Of a stretch of 63,586 bases of DNA, positions 39,029 to 62,905 are shown piece by piece. Position 1 is the first letter of the stretch; each line of letters starts with the position of its first letter. Below the pieces are notes generated by a model. The model did no database searches and was not told where the DNA came from. It was given only the letters and a program-made list of their open reading frames with translations. Source of the stretch: a bacterium (GTDB lineage Bacteria > JACRDZ01 > JAQUKH01); the NCBI GenBank assembly GCA_028719205.1, contig JAQUKH010000011.1, positions 1 to 63,586 of the forward strand, in the 5' to 3' direction. The position numbers and the translations under genes are program-made.

Positions 39029-39101
39029 TTTATTGCCTTTATTAAATCTGATCTATTAAAGATCCAATTTCAGTCAGATCAGAAGATGAAAGTATTTCCC
39101 C

Positions 39102-41072
39102 CTATTCATACCGCAAAGCCTCGACCGGATTAAGTATTGAAGCCTGTTTCGCGGGCCAAAGGCCGAAACCAATACCGATACCGACGGAAAAAGTTGTTGA
39201 AAGGACTATTGAAAAAGTCGAAATACTTGTCGGCCAGCCGGCAATTTTTGCCATTGCTATCGAAACCCCGCAGCCGAATAAAATCCCTAAAATCCCTCCA
39301 AGCGAAGCCATTACTACCGACTCAATTAAAAACTGGGTCATTATATCAATTCTTCTCGCGCCAATGGCTTTGCGAAGGCCGATCTCTTTTGTCCGCTCGG
39401 TCACAGAAACAAGCATTATGTTCATAATGCCTATTCCGCCGACTATCAGAGATATTGTGGCAATTGATCCTAAAAGCCAGGCAAGTGTCTTGGTAGTACT
39501 TTGCATCGCTTCTTGAATATCCGCCATATTACGTATTGAAAAGGAATCTTCATCTTTTTTACTAAGCCGGTGACGTTTAATTATAAGGTTTTTTATTAAA
39601 TCCTGGGCCTCCGGAATTAAAGCGGCATCCTTTACTTCGACATCGATCGAATTTACATATATTTTCCCAAAAAGCCGGAACATCCCGGTAGTAACCGGAA
39701 TAATTATTATGTCATCATTATCCTCCCAAGCCGATGCCCCCTTTTCAGGTAAAACTCCAATTACATGAAAATTGATGCTGTTTATTTTAATGATCTTATT
39801 GATCGGATCAGTTGTCCCAAAAAGTTCCCTGATAATAGTTTTTCCCACGATAGCTACTTTCTGCCGGCTTATCAATTCTTCTTTTGTAAAAAATCTTCCT
39901 TTTACCGGTACGGCCGCCCGCATTTCCGCATAATTCACCCCAACTCCCCTGACTTGTGTATTCCAGTTTTTATTGCCAAATACCACCTGCCCGCGGCCGT
40001 TAACATTTGGAGAAACCGCCTTTAAAGGCGATAATTGAGAAATCGCGCTGGCATCCTGCAACGTTAAACGTGTAATGGCACCCGCCTGCATAGCCACACC
40101 GTGAGTCCTCGCCGAACCCGGCCTTACCATTAAAAGATTTGAGCCTAAAGAAGCCAGCCTTTTCGCGATCGATTCTTTCGCGCCCTGGCCCAGAGCCAGC
40201 ATCGCGATAACCGCGGCTACTCCTATAAAAATACCCAGCATTGAAAGAGCCGTCCTCATTTTGTGAGACAGAATTGCCTGTATCGCCTGCCGCAAATGGT
40301 CCTGAAATTCTGCCGTTCCTACAGGAGAAACGGTTTCACAAACTTCAGTTTCTTCTTCTTTACTTCTAACCGATGGAGAAAGTTCAACAACCGGAACCGT
40401 GGGAATTTTAGTTTCATCTGAAATAATTTTTCCATCGCGCATTTTTATAACTCTTTTGGCATGATGGGCAACATCCGGTTCGTGCGTTATCATGACAATA
40501 GTTTTACCTTTTTTGTTCAGGTCCTTAAAAATCGCCATTACCTCTTCCTGGCTTTTTGTGTCAAGGTTACCTGTCGGTTCGTCCGCGAATATTAAAACCG
40601 GATCATTAACCAGTGCCCGCGCGATAGCAACTCTCTGCTGCTGACCACCTGACAATTCATTAGTATAATTCGTTTTCTTATCCGCTAATCCCACTTCCTC
40701 AAGATTTTTATCCGCATTTTTGAATAAATGTTTATTCCCGCCGTATATTAAAGGGAGTTTAACGTTATCAAGTGTAGTTAATCTCGGGATTAAATGGAAT
40801 TGCTGGAAAACAAAACCTATCGATTGATTCCGCAAATACGCCAATTCATCTTCAGTTAATTTAGAAGTATCTTTTCCATTAAAAAAATATTCACCTGAAT
40901 CCGGACGGTCCAGGAACCCCAAAAGATGCAGCATGGTTGATTTCCCTGAACCCGACGGCCCCATAATAGCGACAAATTCACCAGCTTCAACTTTTAAGTC
41001 AACCCCCAAAAGGGCTTTAAATTCCACATTTCCTGTCCGGTATGTTTTTGTAAGATTTTTTATTTCTATCAT
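39102..41072 (-). CDS. macB: MacB-family fused ABC ATPase/permease, copy B
   Basis: Same motifs. Start placed at MIEIKNL (41072) by paralog alignment and a GGGGA SD; an upstream ATG exists at 41114. Confidence 0.93.
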   Translation of the reverse strand: MIEIKNLTKTYRTGNVEFKALLGVDLKVEAGEFVAIMGPSGSGKSTMLHLLGFLDRPDSGEYFFNGKDTSKLTEDELAYLRNQSIGFVFQQFHLIPRLTTLDNVKLPLIYGGNKHLFKNADKNLEEVGLADKKTNYTNELSGGQQQRVAIARALVNDPVLIFADEPTGNLDTKSQEEVMAIFKDLNKKGKTIVMITHEPDVAHHAKRVIKMRDGKIISDETKIPTVPVVELSPSVRSKEEETEVCETVSPVGTAEFQDHLRQAIQAILSHKMRTALSMLGIFIGVAAVIAMLALGQGAKESIAKRLASLGSNLLMVRPGSARTHGVAMQAGAITRLTLQDASAISQLSPLKAVSPNVNGRGQVVFGNKNWNTQVRGVGVNYAEMRAAVPVKGRFFTKEELISRQKVAIVGKTIIRELFGTTDPINKIIKINSINFHVIGVLPEKGASAWEDNDDIIIIPVTTGMFRLFGKIYVNSIDVEVKDAALIPEAQDLIKNLIIKRHRLSKKDEDSFSIRNMADIQEAMQSTTKTLAWLLGSIATISLIVGGIGIMNIMLVSVTERTKEIGLRKAIGARRIDIMTQFLIESVVMASLGGILGILFGCGVSIAMAKIAGWPTSISTFSIVLSTTFSVGIGIGFGLWPAKQASILNPVEALRYE

Positions 41073-41106
41073 ATTATTCCCCAATTCCATTCTCAAATTT
41101 GAATTT

Positions 41107-43080
41107 TTATTCATATCGTAAAGCTTCGACAGAATTAAGCATTGAGGCCTGTTTCGCGGGCCATAGGCCGAAACCCACTCCTACCCCAATGGAAAAAGTT
41201 GTCGAAATTAATATTGAAAAAATTGAAATACTTGTCGGCCAGCCGGCAATTTTTGCCATTGCTATCGAAACCCCGCAGCCGAATAAAATCCCTAAAATTC
41301 CTCCAAGCGAAGTCATAACGACCGATTCAATTAAAAATTGAGTCATTATATCAACTCTCCGGGCTCCAATGGCTTTACGAAGGCCAATTTCTTTTGTCCG
41401 TTCCGACACAGAAACTAACATTATATTCATGATGCCGATTCCGCCAACTATTAAAGATATAGCCGCGATAGATCCCAAAAGCCATGCGAGTGTTTTAGTT
41501 GTACTCTCCATTGCATCCTGAATGTCTGCCATGTTCCTGATCTGATACGCGTCATTCGCGTTTTTCACGGAAACGTGATGCCGTGTATTGAGTAAATTTT
41601 TTATTGAATCCTGAGCCTCGGGAATCAGCGCGGGATCTTTTATTTCAGCATCAATTGAGTCAACATATTCTTTACCAAAAAGCCGATACATCGCTGTTGT
41701 GACAGGAATTACAATAATATCATCATTATCCCGAAAGCCGCTGGCCCCCTTCTCCGGCAAAGTTCCGATCACCTGGAAATTATCGCCATTTATTTTTATG
41801 GTCGCGTTAACAGGATCCTCATCTCCAAAAACCTGCCTGATAACTGTTTTCCCGATTACAGCTACCTTCTGCCTGCCAGCTAACTCATCTATTGTAAAAA
41901 ATCGTCCTGAAACAGGTTCGGACGCCCGCATTGGAGCATAATTAATACCTGTCCCCTGGATAGAAGTATTCCAGTTTTTATTGCCATAAACAACCTGCCC
42001 CTTGCCGTTACTTGATGGGGAAACCCTCCTTACAGGTGATAAAGTAGATATTAAGTCCGCGTCCTGTAAAGTCAAACGAGTAACTGCCGCGGCGCCTAAA
42101 GATACCCCGCGTATTTCTGTTGAACCCGGCCTTATCATTAAAAGGTTTGAACCTAAAGAAGACAGCCTTTGTGTGATTGATTCTTTCGCACCCTGGCCCA
42201 GGGCCAGCATTGTAATAACCGCGGCTACTCCGATAAAAATACCCAGCATTGAAAGGGCTGTTCTCATTTTGTGAGAAAGAATTGCCTGTATGGCCTGCCG
42301 CAAATGATCCTGAAATCCTGCCTTACCCGCAGAAGAAGCGCCTTCGCAAACTTCCGTTCCCTCTTCCTTTATTTTACCCGATGGACAAATTTCAACAACA
42401 GGAACCGTGGGAATTTTAGTTTCATCCGAAATAATTTTTCCATCGCGCATTCTTATAACTCTTTTGGCATGAAGGGCAACATCCGGTTCGTGAGTTATCA
42501 TTACAATGGTTTTACCTTTTCTATTAAGGTCTTTAAATATCTCCATCACCTCATCCTGGCTTTTTGTGTCCAGATTACCGGTTGGCTCATCCGCAAATAT
42601 AATAAAGGGATCATTAACAAGAGCACGCGCGATCGCTACTCTCTGCTGCTGCCCCCCTGAGAGCTCATTTGAATAATTCGTTTTCTTATCCGCTAATCCC
42701 ACTTCCTCCAGATTTTTATCCGCGTTTTTGAATAAATGTTTGTTACCGCCGTATATTAAAGGGAGTTTAACGTTATCAAGTGTAGTTAATCTCGGGATTA
42801 AATGAAACTGCTGGAAGACAAAACCTATCGATTGGTTCCTTAGAAATGCCAATTCATCTTCAGTTAATTTAGAGGTATCTTTTCCGTTAAAAAAATATTC
42901 TCCTGAATCCGGACGGTCCAGAAACCCTAAAAGATGAAGCATAGTTGATTTTCCTGAACCCGATGGCCCCATAATGGCAACAAATTCACCTGCTTCAACT
43001 TTAAGGTCTACCCCAAGAAGGGCTTTAAACTCAATCTTGCCCGTCCGGTATGTTTTTGTAAGATTTTTTATTTCAATCAT
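41107..43080 (-). CDS. macB: MacB-family fused ABC ATPase/permease, copy C
   Basis: Same motifs. Start placed at MIEIKNL (43080) rather than 43197. Confidence 0.93.
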
Positions 43081-43087
43081 ATTTTCA

Positions 43088-44551
43088 TTATCTTCCCCCG
43101 AATAAACCCATAGTAGGCCTTCTGGTAGTATCAGAACCTTTTGCAGCCTTTGGCTCAGATTTACTAATGACATCTCCTTCTTCCAACCCTGATACAATTT
43201 CCGTAAATTCCCAGTTATTAACCCCGGTTTTTACTTCACGTTCCACAGATTTATCATCCTTGATCACATAAACAATTTTAGTTTTATCCTTATCTTTGAT
43301 AGAATCATTCGGAATGAATAAAACATCTTTGCCTTCCGAAGTTATCATTTCCAGTGACGCGTTCATTCCCGGTTTAAGTATTATACTTGGATTTTTAATC
43401 TCCACCCTGACGTTGAAAGTCGTCACATTCTGTACAATAACTCCCAGGGGCGCTATTCTTATTATACGGCCTTCAAAATTCTTCTTAGGAAACGCGTCAA
43501 CTGTAATCTTTACTGATTGCCCGACTTGGATTTTACCTATGTCTGTTTCATCCACGTCCGCGTCAATATATACCTTTGTCAGGTTAGCCATAACCGCGAT
43601 AGTTGTACCTATGGAATTAAGAGACATACCTGATGATATTACAGTTCCTTCTGCCACATTCGTTTGCAGAATGGTCCCTGCCATCGGCGCGGTAACTCTT
43701 GTATCTTTCAAATTATCTTCAGCTAATTGTAAAGCCACTTTATCTTTAACAACATCTGTCTGTGCCGTAATAATATCCTGTTCTCTTGATTCTTCCGAGA
43801 CTACCTTTTGCTGTGCTTTCTGAAGGTCCAATTCAGCCTGCGTTATTTGAAACCTTGCCATATCAAGGTCTTCTTTTGTGGCGGGTGTTTTTGTAAGCTC
43901 TAAACTTTGAAGAGCCTGTTCATAATCTGATTGCGCCGATTCAAGTTTTGTTTTCGCGGATTCAATATCATCCTTTGAAACAAAACCCTTTTCATTTAAC
44001 TTGGATAACCTTTCATATTGGCTCTGGGCTAAATCCAGATTTGATTTTGCTTTTTCAAGATTAGACTGGGCGCGTTTTATTTCTTCAGGCCGTGACCCGA
44101 TTTGTAATTGAGTAAGTTTCAGCTTAGATATATTCAGATTATTTTCAGCAGTCTTCACCGCGCGGTCATTATCTTCTTTTTCATATTTAACATCTATTTT
44201 TATTTTTTCCAGTCTGGCCATTGAAGCATCCAAATCCGCCTTTGCCTGATCCACAACAGGCTGGGTAAAGGTCTTTTCAATCTCCGCGATGAGATCCCCA
44301 TTTTTCAGATAATCACCCTGTTCAACCGGCATATTAATGATTTTACCGCTGGCCTTTGACTTAACTTCAACTGTAGTATAAGGCTCAATGGTTCCGGTTA
44401 CATTGACCGAAACAATGAGCTCTCCCCGCTTAACCGTAAATATACTTTCCTTAGGTTTACTGCTGGATTTATTTTTAATTAAAAATTTGTATGCCAAAAA
44501 AATAATTCCAGCAATAATAATAATAGCCGCTATCCATTTAATTTTTTTCAC
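43088..44551 (-). CDS. MacA-like periplasmic adaptor (membrane fusion protein) with long coiled coil
   Basis: VEVKSKASGKI, APMAGTIL, VDETDIG, LKPGMNA, V.TG...EI.SGL.EG. Confidence 0.9.
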   Translation of the reverse strand: MKKIKWIAAIIIIAGIIFLAYKFLIKNKSSSKPKESIFTVKRGELIVSVNVTGTIEPYTTVEVKSKASGKIINMPVEQGDYLKNGDLIAEIEKTFTQPVVDQAKADLDASMARLEKIKIDVKYEKEDNDRAVKTAENNLNISKLKLTQLQIGSRPEEIKRAQSNLEKAKSNLDLAQSQYERLSKLNEKGFVSKDDIESAKTKLESAQSDYEQALQSLELTKTPATKEDLDMARFQITQAELDLQKAQQKVVSEESREQDIITAQTDVVKDKVALQLAEDNLKDTRVTAPMAGTILQTNVAEGTVISSGMSLNSIGTTIAVMANLTKVYIDADVDETDIGKIQVGQSVKITVDAFPKKNFEGRIIRIAPLGVIVQNVTTFNVRVEIKNPSIILKPGMNASLEMITSEGKDVLFIPNDSIKDKDKTKIVYVIKDDKSVEREVKTGVNNWEFTEIVSGLEEGDVISKSEPKAAKGSDTTRRPTMGLFGGR

Positions 44552-48982: not shown

Positions 48983-49540
48983 TCAATAATCAATTAATTT
49001 TTTAGACAGGTTCTGTTTCGCCCGGAAAAGATAGGATTCCACTGAAGAAATTGAACATTTCATTATTTTAGCAATTTCCTCGTAAGGCAATGCTTCATAA
49101 CGGCTGAGTATAATAGCGACACGCTGATTATCAGGCAGTGTATTAATCGCTTTTTGGACAATTCGTTCAAGTTCAGATTTTTCCAGCTCCTTAAGAGGAT
49201 TATACGCCGGGCTATGAGGTATTTCATCCGGTTTATTCTCCAATAAAAAATCCAAAGAAAGCCACTGGTTTAATTTCTTTTTGCGCTGGAAATTCAGGGC
49301 TTTATTAACCGCGATGCGATACAGCCATGTTGATAATTTTGATTCAGCACGAAACTCTTTTAGCGATTTATACGCTGTAAAAAAAACGTCCTGGGTGATT
49401 TCTTGCGCGTCTTCACTGTTCCCGGAAATCCTGAAAGCCGAGCTGTACACAAAACCTGAAAACGCCTTATAAATCTCCTCAAAAGCTTGTATATCGCCCT
49501 TTGATGCTTGTTTCAGAATGTCATCTGAAATATCCTGCAT
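48983..49540 (-). CDS. ECF RNA polymerase sigma factor
   Basis: GD..AF, A.EITQDVF, STWLYRIAVN, LP.NQR, Y.EIA, VESYLFRAK. Confidence 0.93.
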   Translation of the reverse strand: MQDISDDILKQASKGDIQAFEEIYKAFSGFVYSSAFRISGNSEDAQEITQDVFFTAYKSLKEFRAESKLSTWLYRIAVNKALNFQRKKKLNQWLSLDFLLENKPDEIPHSPAYNPLKELEKSELERIVQKAINTLPDNQRVAIILSRYEALPYEEIAKIMKCSISSVESYLFRAKQNLSKKLIDY

Positions 49541-49632
49541 TTCAACCTCTGTATGTTAAACAACAAATTTAAATGAAAACCATATGAACATTATACTTTA
49601 AAACATACATTGAAGAATGACTTTTTTTAAAC

Positions 49633-49682
49633 AAAAAAAAGGTGCTCTTTTAATATCTTAGTGTCTATTAAAAAAGCACCTT
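49633..49682 (-). terminator. Intrinsic terminator after the 49706-50374 gene
   Basis: aaggtgc...ttttaata/tattaaaa...gcacctt stem followed by a T-run on the minus strand. Confidence 0.75.
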
Positions 49683-49705
49683 AAAATTTTTATTCAAATA
49701 TATAA

Positions 49706-50374
49706 TTATTGGACTTTAACTGAAGCGTCTTCAATAATTATTCCATATTTATATCCGGCGCCAAAATCTTTATCAGTAGCGACTGTTCCGGTAATAGATA
49801 TTTTGTCATTAGGCTTCGCGGTATCCGCTGTTGTTATAGTAATATCGTTTGTCCCTTGAGCGCCCGTACCATCCTGCAAATGTATCCAGTTTTTTCCCAT
49901 AACTCCCATATTAACTTTTATAACATTTCCAAATACCGTGACATTTTTACCATTAAGTTCAGCTTTTTTAGCATAAATTTCAGCAACTGATAATGTTATA
50001 GGTGAACTTGCTTCTTTATTTTCAGTGCTTGGCGCAGTTACTGCCGGAACTACCGGCGCTGTTACTGTTGCGTCTGCTGGTACTGGTGCTGTCTCTGTTG
50101 CATGTGCCGGTGCTGCTGCTGGAACTGTTGCTTCTGCTGGAACTGTTGCTTCTGCTGGCGCTGCTGCCGGAGCTGTTACTTCTGCTGGCGCTGCTGCCGG
50201 AGCTGTTGCTTCTGCTGGCGCTACTGCCGGTACTGCTGCTGGAGTTGTTACTTCAACTACAGGAGCTTTTACTTCTGCAGCCGGTGCTACCTCTTCTGCT
50301 TTGCTGCCCTTCTGCCACCCGGTTAGCAAAACTCCGGTTATTACTAATCCTAATACTGTTTTAGAAATTTTCAT
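49706..50374 (-). CDS. Exported protein with Ala/Pro/Thr-rich linker and C-terminal OB-fold-like domain
   Basis: Signal peptide; APAEAT repeats; VIKVNMGVMGKNWIHLQDGTG and DKDFGAGYKY..IIEDA motifs. Confidence 0.8.
   Translation of the reverse strand: MKISKTVLGLVITGVLLTGWQKGSKAEEVAPAAEVKAPVVEVTTPAAVPAVAPAEATAPAAAPAEVTAPAAAPAEATVPAEATVPAAAPAHATETAPVPADATVTAPVVPAVTAPSTENKEASSPITLSVAEIYAKKAELNGKNVTVFGNVIKVNMGVMGKNWIHLQDGTGAQGTNDITITTADTAKPNDKISITGTVATDKDFGAGYKYGIIIEDASVKVQ
50105..50240 (-). repeat. Intragenic tandem repeats (30-bp and 18-bp units) encoding APAAAPAE[AV]T / VPAEAT
   Basis: ctgctgccggagctgtt(a/g)cttctgctggcg units and tgctggaactgttgcttc x2. Confidence 0.8.
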
Positions 50375-50515
50375 GTAAAATATCTCCTTTCAAGATGTTT
50401 AAAAAACGTTAGAATTATATCATAATATTCGGAATATAATACAAAATATTAGAATAAAAGTCAAATAAAATAATTCCTGACTAAAATAATCCTTGACCTT
50501 AATAAATTTTACTTA

Positions 50516-50583
50516 TAAACTTGAGTTAAACGGTTCCGATTTATCGGGATCCGCTTTTACTCATTGTTATCCTCGTAGGGGAT
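50516..50583 (+). repeat. 68-bp dispersed two-hairpin element, copy 1
   Basis: 63/68 identical to the reverse complement of 62484-62551. Confidence 0.9.
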
Positions 50584-50596
50584 ATTATCTAAAATT

Positions 50597-51526
50597 ATGC
50601 GGACCGGACTAATTTATCACCCCGATTTTTTAAAACACGATACAGGGCATCACCCGGAGAACAAACTTCGTTTAACAAAAACACTGGAATATTTAGATAA
50701 AATTGGATTATTAAATAAATTAGCGAATATTCCTTTTGATACCGCGAATGAAAAAGATTTAGAACTTATCCACAGCAGGGAACAAATTGAAACAGTCAAA
50801 AATGCCTATTCTCAAGGAATAAATCTTCTCGATCCGGATACTCCAATATGTGAAAAATCGTTTTCCATTGCTTTGCTGGCAGTAGGTGGAGTTTTAAAAG
50901 CAGTAAAAGAAGCCGCCGAAGGAAAATTGAAAAATGCCTTTTGTCTTGTCAGGCCTCCGGGGCATCATTCTACACCTTCACGCAGTATGGGTTTTTGCCT
51001 TTTTAATAATGTGGCAATTGCCGCAAGATATCTTCAGAAAAATCTTGATCATCAAAGGATTTTAATTATTGACTGGGATGCCCATCATGGCAACGGCACA
51101 CAAGAAGCATTCTACAACGACCCGTCGGTCTTATATTTCTCTACCCACCATTATCCCTTTTATCCAGGAACAGGAAGTTCTGAAGAAAAAGGTTCTAAAA
51201 GTGGTTTTGGCTACAATATAAATGTTCCTTTATCTTCCGGAAGCGGTGACAAAGAGTATGTTTCAGCCTTTGAAAAAATTCTGGTTCCGGCCGCGGAAAA
51301 TTTTAAACCGGAATTTATCCTGATATCTGCCGGATTCGACGCGCATATTGAAGACCCCCTGGGAGGTATGGCCGTGACAGACGAAGGATTTAAAACTTTA
51401 ACTGAAATTACGCTGGATATTGCTGATAAATACTGCAATAATAAAATAGTCTCTGTTTTGGAAGGAGGATACAATTTGAAGACTCTGCCAAAAACGATCG
51501 CGGCGCATTTAGAGGTTTTAATATGA
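50597..51526 (+). CDS. Histone deacetylase family (class II-like) protein
   Basis: HPE..R, RPPGHH, GFCLFNN, DWDAHHGNG, SAGFD, LEGGY. Confidence 0.95.
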   Translation: MRTGLIYHPDFLKHDTGHHPENKLRLTKTLEYLDKIGLLNKLANIPFDTANEKDLELIHSREQIETVKNAYSQGINLLDPDTPICEKSFSIALLAVGGVLKAVKEAAEGKLKNAFCLVRPPGHHSTPSRSMGFCLFNNVAIAARYLQKNLDHQRILIIDWDAHHGNGTQEAFYNDPSVLYFSTHHYPFYPGTGSSEEKGSKSGFGYNINVPLSSGSGDKEYVSAFEKILVPAAENFKPEFILISAGFDAHIEDPLGGMAVTDEGFKTLTEITLDIADKYCNNKIVSVLEGGYNLKTLPKTIAAHLEVLI

Positions 51527-51747
51527 TAAAAGAATTTACATATCAAACAATTCTGGGACGTCCTATACTTTTGTGGCTTGGGCTTGGAACATTTTCCAGT
51601 GTTTATTTCACTGCCTCAATCGCATTTTTAAATAAAAAAGGAATTCATAGAATTCCTTTTTCTCTGCATCCTAAAATGGCGTTATTCTCACTTATTCTCG
51701 CATTTTTCCACGCACTGCTGGCTCTTTCACTTTTTTTAAATTTCTAA
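51523..51747 (+). CDS. Small two-TM membrane protein
   Basis: ATGA overlap with the HDAC gene; two hydrophobic helices with His residues. Confidence 0.65.
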   Translation: MIKEFTYQTILGRPILLWLGLGTFSSVYFTASIAFLNKKGIHRIPFSLHPKMALFSLILAFFHALLALSLFLNF

Positions 51748-51758
51748 AATAATTTGTC

Positions 51759-52757
51759 TTATTTCAAATTTATTTCAAATTTTTTTGAATCCTTATAAAG
51801 ATATTCCGCGAACATCTTACTGTAATTTGTCCATGAGGAATCATTGTCGACCGTATAACTATTAGTAAACCAATGGAAACCGTTGACCTTTGCGTCAATA
51901 TTATCAATATGGTGGAGCATAACAGCCTCCAGGCATTTGGGGCGCCGCGGCGAACCCCATTCATATTCTCCGTGATGGCTTAAAATAAGATGAAGTATCA
52001 GATCCCTTAATTCCCCGGGAAACCCGGTAATTTCAGATATTTTTTTTTCAATAATTCCCGCGCCGATAACAATATGGCCGATAAATTTTCCGCGGTCGGT
52101 ATAGTTAAAAGAACGCTCGTAACTTAACTCTTCGGTTTTTCCGATATCATGAAGGATACAGCAGGTTAATAATAATTCCTCATTAACCGCGTTCGGATAA
52201 TGGTTTATTATTGCCTTTGCCAATTTTACAAGGCTCAATGAATGTTCCAGCAATCCGCCCAAATATGGATGATGGAAATCGGTAGCCGCCGGGCATTTCT
52301 TAAAAACCTCAGTGAATTTTTCATTCGCGAAAATATTTTCCAGAAGTTTCCGGCAAAAAGGATTTTTTATTCCGGCAATGATCTCCTGAAGTTCATTGTA
52401 CATTTTCCCGGTATTAAAAGGTGAAACCGGCAAATAATTTTCCAATTTAACTGTTTTCTCTTCTTCCTCATTCAAAGGACGGCATGACGTAACCTTTATC
52501 TGGGGATAACCTTTAAAAAAATCGACCGAACCTTCTATACCCAAAAACTTATCCACCAATAATTTTTTATAAAATGCTTCGCTGGCGTCCCAGACCTTGG
52601 CATCAACCTTCCCTGTTCTATCCACCAGTTCAAGTGAAGCATAAAAATCGCCTTTTTTTGTCAAACCGCTTGTTTTTTCCCTTAAAAGATAAACAGATAT
52701 GACCTTCTCTCCTTCTTTTAAATCCTTAATAAAACGATGTTCTTTAATTTCTGACAT
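51759..52757 (-). CDS. yhaM: 3'-5' exoribonuclease YhaM/Cbf1 family (OB + HD)
   Basis: D.TG..DAKVW, PAA..FHH...GGLLEHS, LHDIGK, ILSHHG..EWGSP, D.IDAK. Confidence 0.9.
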   Translation of the reverse strand: MSEIKEHRFIKDLKEGEKVISVYLLREKTSGLTKKGDFYASLELVDRTGKVDAKVWDASEAFYKKLLVDKFLGIEGSVDFFKGYPQIKVTSCRPLNEEEEKTVKLENYLPVSPFNTGKMYNELQEIIAGIKNPFCRKLLENIFANEKFTEVFKKCPAATDFHHPYLGGLLEHSLSLVKLAKAIINHYPNAVNEELLLTCCILHDIGKTEELSYERSFNYTDRGKFIGHIVIGAGIIEKKISEITGFPGELRDLILHLILSHHGEYEWGSPRRPKCLEAVMLHHIDNIDAKVNGFHWFTNSYTVDNDSSWTNYSKMFAEYLYKDSKKFEINLK

Positions 52758-52783
52758 TTTTACTCCCCATTAAACTATCCCAG

Positions 52784-52812
52784 ATTATATCTGATAAAAA
52801 TTTAACCGTCAA
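52784..52812 (-). promoter_or_regulatory. sigma70 promoter of yhaM
   Basis: TTGACG-17-TATAAT on the minus strand. Confidence 0.75.
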
Positions 52813-52821
52813 TGTATTAAA

Positions 52822-52866
52822 ACCACCCCTAATCCCCTCCTTGGCAAGGAGGGGACAAGGGGAGGT
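52822..52866. repeat. REP-like GC-rich palindrome
   Basis: acc-a-cccct-aa-[tcccctcctt-ggc-aaggagggga]-ca-agggg-a-ggt. Confidence 0.75.
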
Positions 52867-52877
52867 AATTAAATCCC

Positions 52878-52906
52878 TTGACGTCATATAAAATGTTTAC
52901 TATAAT
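52878..52906 (+). promoter_or_regulatory. sigma70 promoter of the nuoEFG-like operon
   Basis: TTGACG-17-TATAAT. Confidence 0.75.
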
Positions 52907-52958
52907 GAATATTAATCTATATTTGCGGTTGGATTATATCTATTTTACTGTTAAATTT

Positions 52959-53510
52959 ATGGAAAATATAAATATCCCGCTTTCCGAAATAACAGCTATT
53001 AATGAGATCATTAGTACCCACCAAAACGGCATAGGGCCGTTAATCCCTATTTTACAGGATATCCAGGATAAATTTAATTATATATCAGAAGAGGCTTTAG
53101 AAATCATCTCAGAAAAACTCCAGCAGCCGATCGCGCATATTTACGGTGTAGCCAGCTTTCACTACCAGTTCAAATTAAAAATGAAGGGCACAGAAATAAC
53201 TCAGGCGGAATTTTCAGTGAAAATATGTTCAGGATCTCCATGCCATGTACGGGGGGCAAATAAAATAATAGAAAGAATTGAAAAATGTTTAGGAATAAAG
53301 CCCGGCGAGGTCACGAAAGATCACATGTTCAGCTTTGAAATGGTTGACTGCCTCGGCGCCTGCGGAATTTCCCCCGCCATAGCGATCAATGACAAAATAC
53401 ACGGGAAATTAACTCCTGAATCTACAGAGATCCTTTTAAGCAAAATAAAACACCAGGCTGAAATTATTGATATTAAAAAAAGAGCCGCGGAACATAAAAA
53501 TAATGAATAA
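52959..53510 (+). CDS. NuoE/HydC-like 2Fe-2S subunit
   Basis: LIPILQ.IQ..F.Y, CSGSPC, CLGAC..SP. ATG 52959 chosen because the TTG at 52878 is the -35 box. Confidence 0.9.
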   Translation: MENINIPLSEITAINEIISTHQNGIGPLIPILQDIQDKFNYISEEALEIISEKLQQPIAHIYGVASFHYQFKLKMKGTEITQAEFSVKICSGSPCHVRGANKIIERIEKCLGIKPGEVTKDHMFSFEMVDCLGACGISPAIAINDKIHGKLTPESTEILLSKIKHQAEIIDIKKRAAEHKNNE

Positions 53511-55308
53511 TAAAAACTCATTAGACATTCAGATCCTTGTCTGCATGGGAACAAATAGTATCGCTTCCGGCGGGAAGGATGTGTTAGCCGAATTTGAGTC
53601 TCTTTTAAAAAATGATAAGATAGCAGCAACCCTTGGAAAAAGGCCCTGCCATACCGGCCGGACAGGCTGCAGGGGATTATGTTCCAATGACGTGCTGGTG
53701 GATATTATTATGCCTCCCTTCGGCCGGACTACATACGGGCATGTCAGTAAAGAAATGGTCCCAAAAATATTTGAAGAACATATTATTAATCAAAAACCGG
53801 TAAAAGAATGGCTTATCTATACTGAAAAAGAAGAAAGCCCATATGCCTCGTTCTACAATAATCAGACCCGGCTGATCCTGGAACATTGCGGCTATATTGA
53901 TCCCGAAGATATTAATAGTTATATAAAGGCCGGCGGATACAGCGCATTTAAAAAAGCGCTGACAATGCAGCCAAAAGATATTGTCGAGGTTATTAAAAGA
54001 TCCAGGCTTCGCGGGCGGGGCGGAGCGGGATTTCCAACCGGTGAAAAATGGGAAATTACTTTAAATACCCCATCGGACCAGAAATATGTAATTTGTAACG
54101 CGGAAGAATGCGATCCCGGAACGTTTAAAGACAGGAGCTTACTCGAAGGTGACCCGCACCAGGTAATTGAGGGAATAATTATCGCGGGTTTCGCAGCGGG
54201 AGCTGATACAGGATTTATTGTTATCAATCCCGACTACAATCTCGCGATCGAACGAGTCGACAAAGCCATCCGGCAGGCTGAGGAAATGAATTTTCTAGGG
54301 GAAAAAATACTTAATACGGGTTTTAATTTTAAACTTATACGCAGGCGCGGGGTAAAAACTTTTATCTGCGGAAAATCCACGGCGCTCATTAAAACCTTAG
54401 AAGGCGAACGCGGTTTTCCGGAGCTTACCCCTCCCCATTCCGCGGAAAAAGGCCTGCTCGGGAAACCTACAATCTTAAACAATACAGAAACCTTTTCCAA
54501 TATCAGCATAATTATTTCGAAGGGCGCTGATTTTTACGCGAATATAGGAACAGAAAAAAGTAAAGGGACTAAAATATTTTCTCTGGCAGGCAAAGTAAAA
54601 AATGTAGGCCTCGTGGAAGTCCCAATGGGAACAACTCTGAAAAAGATCATTTATGATATCGGAGGCGGAACCATTAAAAGAAGAAAATTCAAAGCGGTTC
54701 AGGTAGGCGGGCCTCTAGGCGGGTGTTTTCCGGAAAGTATGCTTGAAACTGTTATTGATTATGAAGCTTTAAAAGAAGCAGGAACCACCATAGGTTCAGG
54801 CGGGCTGGTCGTAATGGATGACAAAACCTGTATGGTGGATCTCGCTAAACACTACCTTGAATTTACACAGGAACAGTCCTGCGGAAAATGCGCCACCTGC
54901 CGCCTCGGAACTGAAGTCCTTTTTGAAACACTTAAAAAAATAACTGAGGGTAAGGGAACTCCCGAGGATATTCAGGTCTTAAAAACCTTAAGTAAAGACA
55001 TACAGGATTTTTCTTTGTGCGGTTTGGGAAAAACCGCCCCTAATCCGGTTCTAACCACTATTAAATATTTTTATGAAGAATATGAAGAACATATAAACAA
55101 TAAAATATGCCGGGCCAGAACCTGCAGAAGCCTTTTAAAATTTAAGATCGATGAAACCTTATGCAGGAAATGCGGACTTTGTTTCAAAAAAGCCTGCAAA
55201 TTCAATGCTATTGAATGGGCACCAAAAAATTCCGCGCGGATAAAACTGGAAAATTGCGTAAGATGCTGCGCGTGCGTGGATATTTGCGAATATAACGCGA
55301 TATATTAA
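53503..55308 (+). CDS. NuoF/HydB-like FMN/NAD(P)H-binding subunit with 2x[4Fe-4S] C-terminus
   Basis: LRGRGGAGFPTG.KW, CNAEECDPG, NNTET, GGPLGG, SCGKC..C, LCGLG, two CxxCxxC motifs. Confidence 0.92.
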   Translation: MNNKNSLDIQILVCMGTNSIASGGKDVLAEFESLLKNDKIAATLGKRPCHTGRTGCRGLCSNDVLVDIIMPPFGRTTYGHVSKEMVPKIFEEHIINQKPVKEWLIYTEKEESPYASFYNNQTRLILEHCGYIDPEDINSYIKAGGYSAFKKALTMQPKDIVEVIKRSRLRGRGGAGFPTGEKWEITLNTPSDQKYVICNAEECDPGTFKDRSLLEGDPHQVIEGIIIAGFAAGADTGFIVINPDYNLAIERVDKAIRQAEEMNFLGEKILNTGFNFKLIRRRGVKTFICGKSTALIKTLEGERGFPELTPPHSAEKGLLGKPTILNNTETFSNISIIISKGADFYANIGTEKSKGTKIFSLAGKVKNVGLVEVPMGTTLKKIIYDIGGGTIKRRKFKAVQVGGPLGGCFPESMLETVIDYEALKEAGTTIGSGGLVVMDDKTCMVDLAKHYLEFTQEQSCGKCATCRLGTEVLFETLKKITEGKGTPEDIQVLKTLSKDIQDFSLCGLGKTAPNPVLTTIKYFYEEYEEHINNKICRARTCRSLLKFKIDETLCRKCGLCFKKACKFNAIEWAPKNSARIKLENCVRCCACVDICEYNAIY

Positions 55309-55312
55309 AACC

Positions 55313-57979
55313 ATGATAAATTTAACAATAGATAACAAAAAAATTTCAGTCCCAAAAGGAACAAAGATCATTGAAGCCGCGAAAAAAGCGGGTATCGACA
55401 TCCCCCATCTGTGCCACCATACCGGGCTTGAACCGTTCGGCGGATGCCGGCTATGCGTAGTGGAAGTTGAAGGCACGCATGAACTGGTGTCTTCCTGTGT
55501 TATGCCCGTCGAAGAAAATATGGTTGTTTTAACTTCTACTCCAAGGATCAATAAAGCCAGACAAACAATAATAGAACTTCTGCTTTTAAACCACCCGATG
55601 GACTGCCTGGTATGTGAACGATGCGGCGACTGCCGCCTGCAGGACCTGGCATACCGCCTTAAAGTAAATTTTAATGTTTATAAAATGGAAAAACGGGTCA
55701 CTCCAGCTGCTCAAATAAAAGGAATAATAGAGATCAATCCTAAAAAATGCACGCATTGCGGCCTTTGCGTCCGCGCCTGCAGGGAGATCCGCATGGTCGG
55801 CGCGATCGATTTTTCTTACCGCGGATTTAAAACTGAGGTCGGAACACCTTTCAGGAAAAGTATTGACTGTGAATTTTGCGGACAATGCATATCGATCTGT
55901 CCTGTCGCGGGGGTTATCAGCACCCTTTCAAAATACGACGCGCGCGTTTGGGAAATAGGAAAACATAATACCATCTGCCCTTACTGCGGATGCGGGTGTT
56001 CTATCTCCTTAAATGTAAAGGATCATAAAGTTATTTCTGTTTCTTCCAGAGAGGACCTTGGAATAAACAACGGCAATCTTTGCGCGAAGGGAAGGTTTGG
56101 ATATGATTTTCCGAACAGCCCGTTAAGGCTGACAAATCCGCTTATAAAAAAAGAAGGAATACTTATTGAAACATCCTGGGAAGAAACAATAAAATTCAGC
56201 GCGAATAAATTCCGCGAGATAAAAGAAAAATACGGGCCTGATTCCATAGCGGGAATAATATCCGCCAGGTGCACTAATGAAGAGGTATATCTTTTCCAGA
56301 AATTTATGAGAATTGTCATCGGAACAAATAATATAGATAATTCTTCGCGCCTTGAGAACGGAGCTAATATTGATATTCTTAGCTCCATGCTTGGTTATCC
56401 GGCTATGACTAATCCGATGAATGACCTCTTGATATCAGAGGTTATTGTTGTCATAGGCGCCAATCCGGTTGAAAGCCAGTCTATCGCCGCATTAAAAATA
56501 AAAGGCGCCGTTAAAAGATCCAATGCCAAACTCATTTTGATAGATCCGAGAAAAACTAAACTTAATTCTTTTGCCAGACTTTGGCTCTCTCCCAATATTC
56601 AAACTGACTCTATTTTACTGAACGTGATCTCAAAAATTATAATTGATGAAAACCTGCATAATAAAGAGTTCATTAAAGAAAACAGCACAGGATTTGAAGA
56701 ACTAAGATCATCTATTAATAATATTTCGATAAAAGATGTTTCTAAAATCACTGATATTCCTGAAGAAAAAATATTCGAGGCCGCGAGGCTTATAGGAAAA
56801 AGTAAAAAAACAGCATTTGTTTACGGTTCAGGCGTTACACAGCAAAAATATTCTACTGAAACTGTAAAAGCAATTGTTAACCTCAGCCTCCTGACCGGAA
56901 ATATAGGAAAAGAAGGAACCGGAGTTTATCCTTTAAAAGGTTATAATAACTCACAGGGAGCCTGTGATATGGGCGCGCTGCCTGAATATCTTCCCGGGTA
57001 CCGGAAATTTGACGATCCGGCGGCACAAACAAAATTCAGTTCTATCTGGGGAAAAGAGCTCCCAAAAACTCCGGGGATAACTTACCATCAGATATTCGGC
57101 AAGATCATGGAGAAAAAGATCAGGGCGGTTTACATTATAGGCGACGACCCTATCGCGTCTTTCCCTGACACGGAATTCCTGAAACTTACATTGATTAAAC
57201 TTGATTTTATTGTAATGAATGATCTGTTCCTGAACAATACCACCCCTTACGCGAATATAGTTTTTCCAGCAGCAAGTTTTACGGAAAAAGAAGGAACATA
57301 CACAAATATGGAAAGGCGCGTTCAAAACTTTAAATCCGCGCTAAAACCCGGAAAAAATATAAAAACAGATTCCGAAATAATCGGGCTTCTTTCAAAAGAA
57401 CTCGGTTATCCGCTGGATCCTTCAGTTAAAAATATAAGAAAAGAGATTTCCGAACTGGTGCCGGACTACCAGGGATTAGATGTTAATCCATTTCCCCAAA
57501 AAGGGATCCAATGGCCCTTTTCTAAAACAAATACTGACGGAACACCTGTTCTTTATACTGACAAAAAAAACAAATTCACTTTTATTATCCCTGAGAATTT
57601 ATCTTTTGTTCAAAAAGAAAATACAGAATATCCGTTTATACTTTTATCCGGCGGATCATTGTTCCACAGCCACAGCGGCGCGATGACGAGAAATTCCAAA
57701 GGGCTGCATGAAGTTTGCCCTGAAGGATTTGTCGGTATAAATCCAAATGACGCTGAAAACCTTAAGGCTATAGATTCTGAATTGATCCGGATCAGCTCAG
57801 GATCAGGCTCAACAACAGTAAAAGTTCATTTGGATAATAATATACCGCGGGGCATATTATTCGCGCCCGTGCATTTTTTTGAAGAAATGCATATCAATAA
57901 CCTTTTCCCCTGGGAACTAAATCCTGTATCCAAAAGCCTTATAAATAAATCAACCCGGGTAAAAATAGAAAAAATATAA
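55313..57979 (+). CDS. NuoG/FdhA-like molybdopterin-oxidoreductase-fold subunit, apparently non-catalytic
   Basis: N-terminal 2Fe-2S, HxxxCxxC, 2x4Fe-4S, CPYCGCGC/LCAKG, EKEGTYTN.ERR. The catalytic position reads SRLENGA rather than ARL[C/U]H. Confidence 0.88.
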   Translation: MINLTIDNKKISVPKGTKIIEAAKKAGIDIPHLCHHTGLEPFGGCRLCVVEVEGTHELVSSCVMPVEENMVVLTSTPRINKARQTIIELLLLNHPMDCLVCERCGDCRLQDLAYRLKVNFNVYKMEKRVTPAAQIKGIIEINPKKCTHCGLCVRACREIRMVGAIDFSYRGFKTEVGTPFRKSIDCEFCGQCISICPVAGVISTLSKYDARVWEIGKHNTICPYCGCGCSISLNVKDHKVISVSSREDLGINNGNLCAKGRFGYDFPNSPLRLTNPLIKKEGILIETSWEETIKFSANKFREIKEKYGPDSIAGIISARCTNEEVYLFQKFMRIVIGTNNIDNSSRLENGANIDILSSMLGYPAMTNPMNDLLISEVIVVIGANPVESQSIAALKIKGAVKRSNAKLILIDPRKTKLNSFARLWLSPNIQTDSILLNVISKIIIDENLHNKEFIKENSTGFEELRSSINNISIKDVSKITDIPEEKIFEAARLIGKSKKTAFVYGSGVTQQKYSTETVKAIVNLSLLTGNIGKEGTGVYPLKGYNNSQGACDMGALPEYLPGYRKFDDPAAQTKFSSIWGKELPKTPGITYHQIFGKIMEKKIRAVYIIGDDPIASFPDTEFLKLTLIKLDFIVMNDLFLNNTTPYANIVFPAASFTEKEGTYTNMERRVQNFKSALKPGKNIKTDSEIIGLLSKELGYPLDPSVKNIRKEISELVPDYQGLDVNPFPQKGIQWPFSKTNTDGTPVLYTDKKNKFTFIIPENLSFVQKENTEYPFILLSGGSLFHSHSGAMTRNSKGLHEVCPEGFVGINPNDAENLKAIDSELIRISSGSGSTTVKVHLDNNIPRGILFAPVHFFEEMHINNLFPWELNPVSKSLINKSTRVKIEKI

Positions 57980-57993
57980 AATATTATTTTTAT

Positions 57994-58545
57994 TTATGGT
58001 TTTATTTTTTCCGTCATAATATAATCAGCGTTTTTCGCTTTGCTGTGACAATCAATACATTCTTTTACTTTGCCTTCAGCAAGTATTTCAAAAGCAGGAT
58101 CATATTTTATCCATAGCCAATCACCGGCGGCAGGATCAAAACCTTTAACTTTATACATAACAGTAATTGCCATTAATTTTTTATCAGCTGAATAATTTTC
58201 TTTTACTATCATAGCCCCGTCCTGCATATCTTTTTTTTCAGTCAGTGAATCAAGCGCAATTTTATTTACATAAAGTGTTAAAAAAGAGCCGTGAGGTTCC
58301 TTACCCGCGTAAAGCTTTTCTTTACCTGGCCACATTTCCCAATTAGTATAAGTGCCGCATTTTGTTATAAAATACCGGACATCACCAGCTGACGGGCGCG
58401 GCCTGTCCATGATCAAACAATAATATGATTTCCCTTCTTTGGTTTTCGCATCCATTCCATGGCTTAGGCCTATATCTGCGGAAAATACCGCTAGCTGCAC
58501 CCCTAAAACCAAAATTAATAATAAACCCAGCATATACTTTTTCAT
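57994..58545 (-). CDS. Cytochrome P460 family c-type cytochrome
   Basis: Signal peptide; GAMIVKENY (putative cross-link Lys), VMYK, GDW.W, C-terminal CIDCH. Confidence 0.8.
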   Translation of the reverse strand: MKKYMLGLLLILVLGVQLAVFSADIGLSHGMDAKTKEGKSYYCLIMDRPRPSAGDVRYFITKCGTYTNWEMWPGKEKLYAGKEPHGSFLTLYVNKIALDSLTEKKDMQDGAMIVKENYSADKKLMAITVMYKVKGFDPAAGDWLWIKYDPAFEILAEGKVKECIDCHSKAKNADYIMTEKIKP

Positions 58546-58674
58546 ATTTCTGCCTCCTTATATTTTTCCCTCAGTCTTAATTTTATAACATATTTATTAT
58601 TTGTAAAGCTTTTTTATTCCACATTTTATTGATAAAAAACCAGGATCTATAGTATACTAACAATAAAAACTATT

Positions 58675-59550
58675 ATGATAAACTTTGATATTGATAAAAG
58701 AATCAAAGACGCTTATGAAATTTTCAACTCATGCCAGCTTTGCCCAAGGGAATGCGGCTTAAACAGAAACGATGAAATACTGGGTTATTGCGAGACCGGA
58801 AAAGAATTAATAATTTCAAGTTCCGGCCCTCATTTCGGGGAAGAACCTGAATTAACCGGAACAAACGGATCAGGAACAATATTTTTCACGGGCTGCAACC
58901 TCGGATGCTGTTTCTGCCAGAATTTTGAAATAAGCCAACTGCAGAAAGGACAAAAAACCACGCCGGAAGAACTTGCCGGTATAATGATCTCTTTGCAGAA
59001 TAAAGGGTGCCATAATATTAATCTCGTTACTCCAACGCATTTCACGCCGCATATCATCCAGGCATTTAAACTGGCTGAAGAAAAAGGGCTTAAAATCCCT
59101 CTTGTCCATAATAACAGCGGGTATGAAAATGTGTCCACTTTAAAATTTTTTGAGGGAATAATAGACATTTACATGCCTGATATCAAATACGCGGAAAGTG
59201 AAACCTCCTATAAATTCGCACACGCGCATGATTATCCTGAAAAAATGAGACTCGCCGTTAAAGAAATGCACCGCCAGGCCGGCGACCTTGTTTTGGACGA
59301 AAATGGATTGGCGAAAAAGGGATTGATCATACGGCATCTTATGCTTCCGGATAAGATCTCGGAGACAGAAAAAATAGCTAAATTTGTCGCTGAAGAAATT
59401 TCAAAAGATACATACTTTAACCTGATGGATCAATACCAGCCTTACTATAAAGCGGCTAATTTCCCTGAAATAAACCGGAAGGTTACAAAAGAAGAACACG
59501 AAAAGGCTTTAAAACTTGTCCGTGCGACGGGGCTGCACAGAGGATTTTAA
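58675..59550 (+). CDS. PflX-like radical SAM protein
   Basis: CQLCPREC, HFGEEP, GSGTIFF.GCNLGC.FCQN, HNINLVTP, DIYMPD.KY, RHL.LP. Confidence 0.92.
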   Translation: MINFDIDKRIKDAYEIFNSCQLCPRECGLNRNDEILGYCETGKELIISSSGPHFGEEPELTGTNGSGTIFFTGCNLGCCFCQNFEISQLQKGQKTTPEELAGIMISLQNKGCHNINLVTPTHFTPHIIQAFKLAEEKGLKIPLVHNNSGYENVSTLKFFEGIIDIYMPDIKYAESETSYKFAHAHDYPEKMRLAVKEMHRQAGDLVLDENGLAKKGLIIRHLMLPDKISETEKIAKFVAEEISKDTYFNLMDQYQPYYKAANFPEINRKVTKEEHEKALKLVRATGLHRGF

Positions 59551-60578
59551 AACTTTATTGCCCTGCCGTCTTTAATGAAATAATCATTCTCCCAGCGAAA
59601 ACCAATATTTTTAGTATAAAATCCGGGTTCAAAAGCAAAAGCTACGCCGTCCCGGAATTTATGTTTATTAAAGATATTTTTTGACAGGGAAAGATTGGGG
59701 TAGATGTCATGCACTGCCGTGCCTATACCATGGCCGTAGGCATGCTTTTCATAAATATCAACCTTATATTGTTTGGCAATAATATTCATTTTTTCAGTTA
59801 ATTCGAAAGGGTATATTTTTGAAAGGTCCATTGATTCCATTTCCATGAACATCGCTTGCGCGGCCTTGTAAAATTTGTGTTCGCGGATATCCCCCCCGAT
59901 AAGAAAAGTTCTCGTAATATCCGAGGTGTATCCGTAAAAACTTACACCCATATCGATGATAAAAAACTCGCCGTTCTTTAATTTTTTATCCGTAGTCCTG
60001 ATAGGATGAGGATTAATAGCACGTTTACCAGATGCTGTGATCGTCTTAAATGAATTCTCCGCGTGCTTTTTACGAGTTTCAAAATATATAAGATCGTAAA
60101 TATCCATTTCTGTCACGCCTGCTTTTATTTCACTTTTTAACTTTTCAAGGATCTCAAAAGTGGCATTCACGGATCTTTGTATAAGCTTGAGCTCAGACAC
60201 GGTTTTGACCATGCGTAACGGGAAAATAACATCCTGCGCGGGTTTTAAAATAAACTCCTTTTTTAACTTCTTCAGCCATGAATATTTAATAATATCAAAA
60301 TTATAATTATCAGAATACTCAGCCAGTATAATTTTATTTTTTTTTGTGGCTTTTTTTATAAATGGAATTATTTCCGCGCTTGACAAATAAGCTATTATTT
60401 CGATCTTATCTTTTAACGCCGAAAGGAGGCTTGTCTCAATGGGAGATACAAAGGCGTATATTTTGCCGTTTGGAAATATCAATAAAAAAGCGGGAGCCGC
60501 GTGATCCGCCTGCAGAGTAAACATCCGGTAGTTTTCGTTTAACCCGTCGAAATTCGTGATCAATAAAGGCGACGACAA
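59547..60578 (-). CDS. M24 (Xaa-Pro aminopeptidase) family metallopeptidase
   Basis: IDMG....Y.SDITRT, H..GHGIG..VHD, FEPG, RWEND. The true start may lie further upstream (ATC 60638). Confidence 0.85.
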   Translation of the reverse strand: MSSPLLITNFDGLNENYRMFTLQADHAAPAFLLIFPNGKIYAFVSPIETSLLSALKDKIEIIAYLSSAEIIPFIKKATKKNKIILAEYSDNYNFDIIKYSWLKKLKKEFILKPAQDVIFPLRMVKTVSELKLIQRSVNATFEILEKLKSEIKAGVTEMDIYDLIYFETRKKHAENSFKTITASGKRAINPHPIRTTDKKLKNGEFFIIDMGVSFYGYTSDITRTFLIGGDIREHKFYKAAQAMFMEMESMDLSKIYPFELTEKMNIIAKQYKVDIYEKHAYGHGIGTAVHDIYPNLSLSKNIFNKHKFRDGVAFAFEPGFYTKNIGFRWENDYFIKDGRAIKF

Positions 60579-60622
60579 ATCAGGTAAAAGCTGCGATATT
60601 TTTTCAGCAAACGCCTGCCTTA

Positions 60623-61585: not shown

Positions 61586-61588
61586 TCT

Positions 61589-62188
61589 TTATTCCCCTAT
61601 AAAATCTTCAATAGATTTATTATATTTCCCTAATTCTTTAACGGCTCCATTTTTCCCCGCGCCATTATCGCTGTTTAAGGTTTGATCAAAACTTTCGAAC
61701 CTGTTCCAGGAAAAAATGTCAATTATCAGGTTATAAACTTTTGGAGTATATACGGCAATAGGTTTTACTATTATTGTCTTTTTAAGTTCTTCTCTGTACT
61801 TGGGTATTAATGGAAATTTCATTAAACTTATTACAACCAATCCGGTAATAAAAAAACCTTTAAGGAATCCCAAAGCAGCACCGCCAAATTTATCCACCCA
61901 TTCTAAAAGCATCAGTTTAACAACATTCTGCAAAAACATCCCGCAAAAAAACATCAAAACATAAATAAATATCCATATCAAACTGAACGCGGCCGCCTTG
62001 CTGTTTCCGTATGACAGCCCTAATAAATTCCTAAAAATATCAGCCAGGCCGGGGCTAAGTTTTACCGCTACAAGCCCTCCGCCAAATATGCCGAATAAAT
62101 TAAAGGCCTCCCGTAAGAGGCCTCTAAAATATCCCCGTATAACAATATACAGGAAAAATACTAAAGCAATAATATCGAAAAGATGCAT
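61589..62188 (-). CDS. cvpA: CvpA (colicin V production) family membrane protein
   Basis: D........G..RGL.RE and DK.GGA..G..KG motifs. Confidence 0.85.
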   Translation of the reverse strand: MHLFDIIALVFFLYIVIRGYFRGLLREAFNLFGIFGGGLVAVKLSPGLADIFRNLLGLSYGNSKAAAFSLIWIFIYVLMFFCGMFLQNVVKLMLLEWVDKFGGAALGFLKGFFITGLVVISLMKFPLIPKYREELKKTIIVKPIAVYTPKVYNLIIDIFSWNRFESFDQTLNSDNGAGKNGAVKELGKYNKSIEDFIGE

Positions 62189-62202
62189 TGTTTATCCTCA
62201 GG

Positions 62203-62890: not shown

Positions 62891-62905
62891 ATGTTCCTCT
62901 TGTTT

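Follow-up and report, generated by a model that had tools for sequence, protein, structure and literature searches.

Two copies of a short sequence that can fold into a pair of hairpins lie in opposite orientations on one bacterial contig, and the few differences between them leave the fold intact. Does this reflect an RNA retained for a function in the host, or a DNA element whose own movement depends on its fold? The initial annotation of the locus had proposed both, namely a new cis-regulatory or non-coding RNA motif, or a non-autonomous mobile unit. The present analysis, which covered the whole 63,586-nucleotide stretch (hereafter the window) and related loci in other genomes, favors the second answer: the element is real, it is mobile and it resembles the attC sites of integrons.

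Two inverted copies in the window

The two copies constitute the longest inverted repeat of the window. Copy 1 is located at 50516-50583 on the plus strand and copy 2 at 62484-62551 on the minus strand, and they are identical at 63 of 68 positions. The five differences, at element positions 10, 20, 36, 45 and 63, had been described as fold-preserving, and each of them indeed fits the two-hairpin fold: positions 10 and 45 form a G-C to C-G double change, position 20 is a U-G/C-G and position 36 a G-C/G-U substitution, and position 63 falls in the loop of hairpin 2, all as first reported. The folding z-scores are -3.6 for copy 1 and -3.3 for copy 2, values equalled by 1 and 2 of 200 shuffles, respectively. 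No third copy was detected in the window by BLAST or by an unfiltered model search, where the next score was 12 bits against 74 and 68 for the two copies. The 68-bp extent first assigned to the element was correct at its left end, but comparison with the family described below moves the right end 2 nt further, to give 50516-50585 and 62482-62551. Compared with this family, both window copies share one pair-breaking change (an A.C at pair 3 of stem A2) and both have imperfect right ends, so these two particular copies may be inactive.

Copy 1 sits between divergent genes, 12 nt ahead of a histone-deacetylase-family gene (50597-51526, plus strand). It had been read as starting at the -10 box of this gene and forming its leader. 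A promoter-like match does exist at 50493-50521 (9 of 12 positions), but 56 such matches were counted in 49500-63586, with 42 expected, and a -35 box precedes the TAAACT motif in only one of the nine full copies of the family. Copy 2 lies downstream of the HIT-family gene hinT (62549-62890, minus strand) and begins at its stop codon, as originally noted; the U-run that had been placed at its other end belongs to the flank and not to the unit. A separate promoter-like site (10/12) for rpsU (62203-62403) follows copy 2 at 62445-62472 on the minus strand. The -10 box of copy 1 and the hinT stop codon at copy 2 are simply the TAA end of the unit.

Several other features of the window were recorded on the way. 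A decayed copy of tRNA-Val at 21960-22053 (minus strand), just upstream of the intact gene (21872-21948), contains a 20-bp palindrome inserted after the D-loop, and its anticodon arm now forms a palindrome in which the native TGACAT is retained. In both element copies, a palindrome seems to have overwritten the apex. It had been equated with that of the pseudo-tRNA; the arms are shared, but the loop differs. Since the arms are the same in both places, something in this genome appears to write short palindromes into existing hairpins. Elsewhere, three tandem MacB-type ABC transporter paralogues (37058-43197, minus strand) share blocks that are 82-88% identical, and two large Ig/cadherin-repeat proteins (22207-26247 and 28278-32033, plus strand) with identical 300-nt blocks flank a RACo-type gene.

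A dispersed family and its ends

A single scan of the GTDB genomes was performed with a pattern that specified the linker, hairpin 2 apart from its loop and, from hairpin 1, no more than the foot. It returned 21 loci, of which 11 carry the family. These hold 12 copies, since locus L001 contains a second one (L001b), and they are distributed among four genomes of environmental bacteria (JAIQZQ, JACZYU, JABMQM and JAQYVG records), two planctomycetes and two Desulfobacterota: seven loci in a Ca. Anammoxibacter genome, which therefore carries the element eight times, two in a Planctomycetota genome and one in each of the Desulfobacterota. Seven copies are full length and five are partial or decayed. 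The ten remaining loci (L002-L005, L009, L011, L013-L015 and L019) were set aside as chance matches, without family sequence beyond the pattern and with model scores of at most 21.5 bits. This upper value, obtained for L004, overlaps the scores of two partial copies, 23.5 for L016 and 19.8 for L018; both were retained, as 9 bases outside the pattern, and the terminal AA as well, agree with the family. The window's own copies are at none of the 21 loci, and a protein search for relatives of the window gave four matches at 83-93%, the next being at 63% or less. No full-length match was found in the plasmid and phage sets by BLAST of window copy 1 and of the L008 and L006 copies.

The invariance of the linker and of hairpin 2 is partly a product of the scan pattern. 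The left end TAAACTTG is found in all nine full copies (seven from GTDB and two from the window) although it lies outside the pattern, and the right end GATAA is present in 12 of 12 GTDB copies, its last AA being likewise outside the pattern. The apex varies in length, and the palindrome seen in the window is absent from all seven other full copies. Near-identical copies occur in unrelated contexts in two genomes (L006 and L020). Across copies, the shared sequence stops at a TAA on the left and at a TAA on the right, with constant orientation, and there are no terminal inverted repeats; the ends inside the TAA triplets are not complementary, which separates the element from DDE-type MITEs.

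Movement is seen in L017, in which the element lies antisense inside a reverse-transcriptase (RVT_1) gene and splits it at R-L-Y|E-Q-G. An intact homologue (L022, from a Vibrio aquimaris record) reads RQLYEQG at this place. By TBLASTN, query residues 1-299 and 293-337 align in different frames on both sides of an 80-nt net insert with TAA at each end. This empty-site comparison is a single one, made through protein homology at 40% identity; a second homologue, L023, aligned to the first stretch only. Such an 80-nt block with TAA at both ends identifies the element as a mobile insertion. Together with the sharp ends shared in unrelated contexts, it bears out the earlier proposal of a non-autonomous mobile unit: the element moves as a unit of 60-80 nt and lands at TAA in one fixed orientation. 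No significant preference beyond TAA was observed among the 12 copies. The base after the right TAA is A in six, C in four and T in two of them (A or C, P = 0.07, not significant), and the base equivalent to that of the attG consensus GWT fits in 4 of 12.

Based on ORF calls, seven copies are in the sense orientation in tandem gene pairs, five are in divergent regions and two, L001b and L017, are antisense to host genes. A Pfam search of 149 of the 162 ORFs called in the 11 family loci revealed neither a neighbor function common to the copies nor an adjacent transposase or integrase, and no left end that could denote an autonomous partner was found upstream of the partial copies within their loci.

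Constraint on the stem was also examined across the family. In stem A, 95.7% of the cells are paired, compared with 41-56% in slid controls. Both sides change in 2 of 13 pairs, and the covariation score was reached by none of 500 shuffles, a test which involves nine related sequences and depends mainly on one pair; the pair-count measures are not significant (138 and 91 of 500). This covariation is in agreement with the structural constraint on single-stranded DNA suggested at the outset. On the plus strand, the 189 stem cells include 10 G.T against 4 A.C, and 6 other mismatches. The compensatory change of the window corresponds to the first pair of the L box. Such a change can result from selection for mobility or from template switching, and the latter has seemingly taken place in L007, where an inverted copy of the right arm replaces the left arm of the element (9999-10075), as template switching would give.

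Some individual loci deserve description. An apex piece common to two genomes (L012, 8506-8530, and L016, near 10035-10060) points to apex subfamilies, the L016 copy being devoid of its left arm. The decayed L018 copy begins at the stop codon (TAG, 10079-10081) of hflX, as window copy 2 does at that of hinT. Dispersed repeats, made of TTTAT-loop hairpins and hexamer-repeat runs, are found near three copies (L008, 9900-9960; L006, 1870-1920; L017, 8680-8750 and 9945-10010). In L017, the reverse-transcriptase gene is bracketed by a 60-nt direct repeat and an IS66 gene is situated 7 kb from the element. In L020, a flagellar hook-type gene is preceded by a c-di-GMP-I riboswitch (1788-1877, plus strand), whose start lies 13 nt beyond the element. 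Among the loci set aside, two Bacteroidota genomes share a conserved stretch of more than 100 nt around the pattern match (L009, near 1590; L019, near 6669), with a hairpin that differs only in its loop; it does not belong to the family (model score of 16 bits for L019), and that of L009 has no Rfam match.

Comparison with integron attC sites

The plus strand of the element, which is the folding one, was compared with attC bottom strands. Recombination at attC is described as taking place between the R-box A and C, on the bottom strand in its folded form, structure outweighing sequence (PMC7439510, PMC2727003). The order of boxes is the same, R' (7 nt), a 5-nt spacer, L' (7), a variable apex, L'' (8, with one extra base), a 5-nt spacer and R'' (7), and all nine full copies can be parsed in this manner; in attC the first spacer measures 5-6 nt, and the reference geometry was taken from 12 sites. 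The closest site among those tested is the aadA1 attC of plasmid R100 (L024:13475-13534), to which the copies are identical at 10-12 of 12 positions over the first spacer and L', and at 13-14 of 20 over L'', the second spacer and R''.

In copy 1 (50516-50585 with both terminal triplets, the right one being TAT instead of TAA), the R'-equivalent box occupies 50513-50519; its first 3 nt belong to the flank and its last base is A where attC has C. It includes the left TAA (50516-50518), the target or core triplet, whose counterpart in the alignment is the TAA immediately preceding the attC crossover. The 5-nt spacer and L' box follow at 50520-50531, identical to aadA1 attC at 11 of 12 positions, and then the apex at 50532-50552, with its lineage-specific palindrome at 50534-50549. 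The L'' box, in which an extra T stands at the position of the attC extrahelical G, extends with the second spacer over 50553-50565. The R''-equivalent box GTTATCC (50566-50572) is also the 5' arm of hairpin 2, and the tail (50573-50585), consisting of the whole cargo and the complement of R'', closes this hairpin and, in a circle, would restore the R box. Copy 2 shows the same boxes on the minus strand (62482-62551): left TAA, the hinT stop codon, at 62549-62551, spacer and L' at 62547-62536, apex at 62535-62515, L'' and spacer at 62514-62502, R'' at 62501-62495 and tail at 62494-62482.

This resemblance was quantified with an attC profile devoid of any pairing term. Of 21 gene ends tried for it, 15 were kept, and these supplied 12 unique class 1 sites. 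Among 803,396 positions, the nine full copies rank 1-6, 10, 11 and 17, and the two window copies are first and second within the window. The copies score 19-29, in comparison with 13-42 for true sites in leave-one-out, and the best positions outside the family, at 21.4 and 21.0, exceed three element copies. L020 and L008 each attain their own highest score with a different right arm. For each of four copies, 0-1 of 1000 fold-keeping shuffles scored as high, also when the aadA1/aadA2 sites were left out of the profile, and the opposite strand scored only 2-6 against 17-24. For L008 and window copy 2, a simple local alignment with the aadA1 site gives a weak result, with scores reached by 35 and 16 of 2000 shuffles, respectively.

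The boundaries of the unit concur with this alignment. The boundary deduced from the reverse-transcriptase gene falls at the aligned attC crossover, and the unit begins with bases that can pair with R'', by which the R box is restored once the unit is circular. The resulting 6-bp GGATAA/TTATCC helix, between R'' and the terminal bases of the unit, is found in seven of seven full GTDB copies and is imperfect in the two window copies; in the five copies tried, the joined ends fold as one rod. The plus strand thus has the geometry and the sequence of an attC bottom strand, and its joined ends would give a single rod with a 6-bp R box. The resemblance to attC, which had escaped the initial annotation, accounts for both hairpins and for both boundaries.

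The element nevertheless departs from canonical attC sites at several points. The base after TAA is A in nine of nine copies, against C in 12 of 12 reference sites; an AAC triplet can be found in the element only with a 4-nt spacer, in a register that is one base off the single empty-site comparison. With IntI1, the two partners must share their first base, and sites changed from G to T recombine 20-fold less well (PMC2811028); the variable base next to the right TAA strictly matches neither of these rules. The extra base of L'' is rightly placed, but it is T in eight of nine copies and C in one, in contrast to G in 9 of 12 references, an exchange of the extrahelical G for T having only a 1.8-fold cost (PMC2727003). 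The central spacer, unpaired in attC, pairs over 3 bp in the element and leaves a 3x3 loop beside the R box, and full spacer pairing lowers attC recombination (PMC2727003). The second spacer begins with T instead of the G of 12 of 12 references, and the L box contains a T.T mismatch. Unlike attC cassettes, the element has no ORF, its cargo forming the hairpin that closes the circle into a rod. No integron integrase was identified among the 51 ORFs of the window or the 149 of 162 ORFs examined in the 11 family loci, and neither a cassette gene nor a cassette array was found near the element in these regions. Both host phyla, Planctomycetes and Deltaproteobacteria, have chromosomal attC sets, but the consensus ends of these, with C followed by GTT, are of the canonical type and resemble the element no more closely (PMC8352920). 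In view of these departures, the claim made here is that the element works like a cassette and not that it is a standard attC; the altered crossover base and the partly paired spacer suggest a variant enzyme and not IntI1 itself.

Candidate mechanism and alternatives

Integron recombination exchanges one strand only and is resolved by replication. The element would correspond to about one attC-type recombination site plus 7-8 nt of cargo. Its plus strand would fold when single-stranded, during replication or transfer, and an integron-type tyrosine recombinase of the host, encoded elsewhere, would release it as a small circle of single-stranded DNA through exchange at both TAA. This circle would then enter the genome at TAA sites elsewhere, in the way IntI uses attG sites, and the one-strand exchange would be resolved by replication, allowing copies to accumulate. 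Every change that keeps the stem would keep the copy mobile, which would explain the compensatory substitutions without any function for the host. IntI1-3 are known to insert cassettes genome-wide at short attG sites, and the inserts can excise (10.1101/2022.09.11.507474). We infer the recombinase, the circle and the gain of copies, and we consider it rather probable that the element is a mini-cassette devoid of an ORF, which an integron-type recombinase, probably a variant one, cuts out of single-stranded DNA in trans and places again at TAA. That it is moreover selfish, a 60-80-nt cassette reduced to its attC which hijacks a recombinase of shifted specificity and whose single-stranded rod has spread into TAA sites in at least three lineages, appears to us as plausible as its contrary; the same even balance applies to its description as a non-autonomous integron parasite, about the smallest cassette possible.

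Another single-strand enzyme could have moved a sequence derived from attC. This may be a HUH Y1 transposase, the element then being PATE- or REPIN-like and cut and rejoined at both its TAA, or a recombinase of the IS110/IS1111 type for which TAA is the core. The lack of terminal inverted repeats, the oriented short target and the two strand-biased hairpins are reminiscent of non-autonomous IS200/IS605 elements (PMC4810608, PMC7290912, PMC6006769), and the departures from attC at the crossover base would then present no difficulty. This explanation, which we regard as unlikely, does not account for the attC geometry and sequence and the boundary at the aligned crossover. PATEs have subterminal hairpins with guide tetranucleotides, a target of 4-5 nt and a cognate TnpA element that shares their ends; the present element shows hairpins and an oriented 3-nt target, and no partner was found in the 11 loci or in the plasmid and phage sets. 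The GTAG/GTGG foot of REP and REPIN hairpins (PMC6006769) is absent from the element consensus. A decayed gene at L010 (6355-7650), split by two similar inserts, resembles by eye a RAYT/TIRYT tyrosine transposase, with no Pfam match for the piece scanned; this lone remnant is not flanked by the element. IS608 recognizes its targets by pairing through guide tetranucleotides, and none is evident by eye. An IS608-type right end on the reverse strand, an IS91-type target, a DDE MITE, a CRISPR repeat, a dif site and a riboswitch were considered as well and dropped by eye.

It is more doubtful that the copies are mere relics, a normal cassette having lost its gene once and the scattered copies being dead-end single attC sites without integrase instead of a family that spreads. 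Such single sites are indeed common (3400 in 21,105 genomes; 10.1101/2022.09.11.507474), and five of the 12 GTDB copies are partial or decayed and the ends of the window copies worn, but the same gene-less unit recurs with the same ends in three lineages and eight times in one genome, it entered a gene as an 80-nt block, and its tail remains complementary to R''. A little less probable still is that the element is retained as a structured RNA, be it a leader, a terminator or a small RNA, for a function in the host. The excess of G.U-type changes favors the plus strand, sense copies in tandem pairs outnumber the antisense ones, and copy 1 completes a promoter match; this ratio of seven to two is however within chance, five copies lie in divergent regions and an antisense insertion breaks a gene. 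The scarcity of the -35 box, the antisense copies and the diversity of neighbors argue against the cis-regulatory or non-coding RNA motif first proposed, and the lack of a common neighbor function and of any Rfam match makes a regulatory RNA unlikely. The Rfam comparison called for in the initial annotation covered the window, both copies and 8 of the 11 family loci, without a match on the element; a rimP-leader match (16 bits against 47) was rejected, as it rests on the apex palindrome. Copy 1 could still have been co-opted locally as a promoter or leader. Finally, retro-insertion of a small RNA by a reverse transcriptase through TAA microhomology is very improbable. Several copies lack their 5' part, the circle is rod-like and one copy lies inside a reverse-transcriptase gene, but the scan required the 3' part and only 5' losses could be seen, there is no ribozyme or Rfam match, the reverse-transcriptase gene is the target and on the other strand, and the attC likeness would be unexplained.

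Besides attC sites, the preferred reading, that of an ORF-less cassette mobilized in trans, can be compared with the isolated cassettes called SALINs and the cassettes inserted at attG, which are also attC-bearing units at scattered chromosomal sites with a very short target and a capacity to disrupt genes (10.1101/2022.09.11.507474). A SALIN, however, combines a CDS with attC and targets GWT (10.1101/2022.09.11.507474); the element has no CDS, uses TAA/TTA with a free neighboring base and is multi-copy across phyla. ORF-less gene cassettes similarly have no reading frame, but they are found within arrays and bring promoters or small RNAs with them (PMC6557892), whereas the element is dispersed and its cargo amounts to 7-8 nt. 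PATEs, REPINs and TIR repeats, associated with HUH Y1 enzymes, are short, non-autonomous, hairpin-based and scattered in intergenic regions with an oriented short target (PMC4810608, PMC7290912, PMC3116915, PMC3733652, PMC6006769). The element differs from them by the absence of a GTAG/GTGG/CGTC tag and of a detected partner transposase, by unlike hairpins at its two ends and by its attC geometry. A dispersed element limited to attC was not encountered in the accessible literature on attG, SALINs, ORF-less cassettes, PATEs, REPs and MITEs (including the accessible text of PMC3072357, PMC3733652, PMC3116915, PMC6006769, PMC4810608, PMC7290912 and PMC6557892), a body of work mostly outside subscription journals, and bioRxiv supplements may list such sites. 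The element motif gave no match in the literature searched, and the apex palindrome a single unrelated one.

Integron cassettes are regarded as vehicles for genes, and an attC site on its own as a leftover. If the mechanism proposed here is true, the integrase system has its own miniature parasite, which multiplies over the chromosomes of unrelated phyla, and its copies offer natural empty and filled sites on which genome-wide insertion of the attG type can be tested beyond laboratory conditions. An integrase variant able to use a crossover other than AAC and a spacer that is paired would be indicated in addition, and families of this kind may escape attC finders tuned to AAC. More generally, compensatory changes in dispersed hairpins can mean recombination of single-stranded DNA, and not the function of an RNA.
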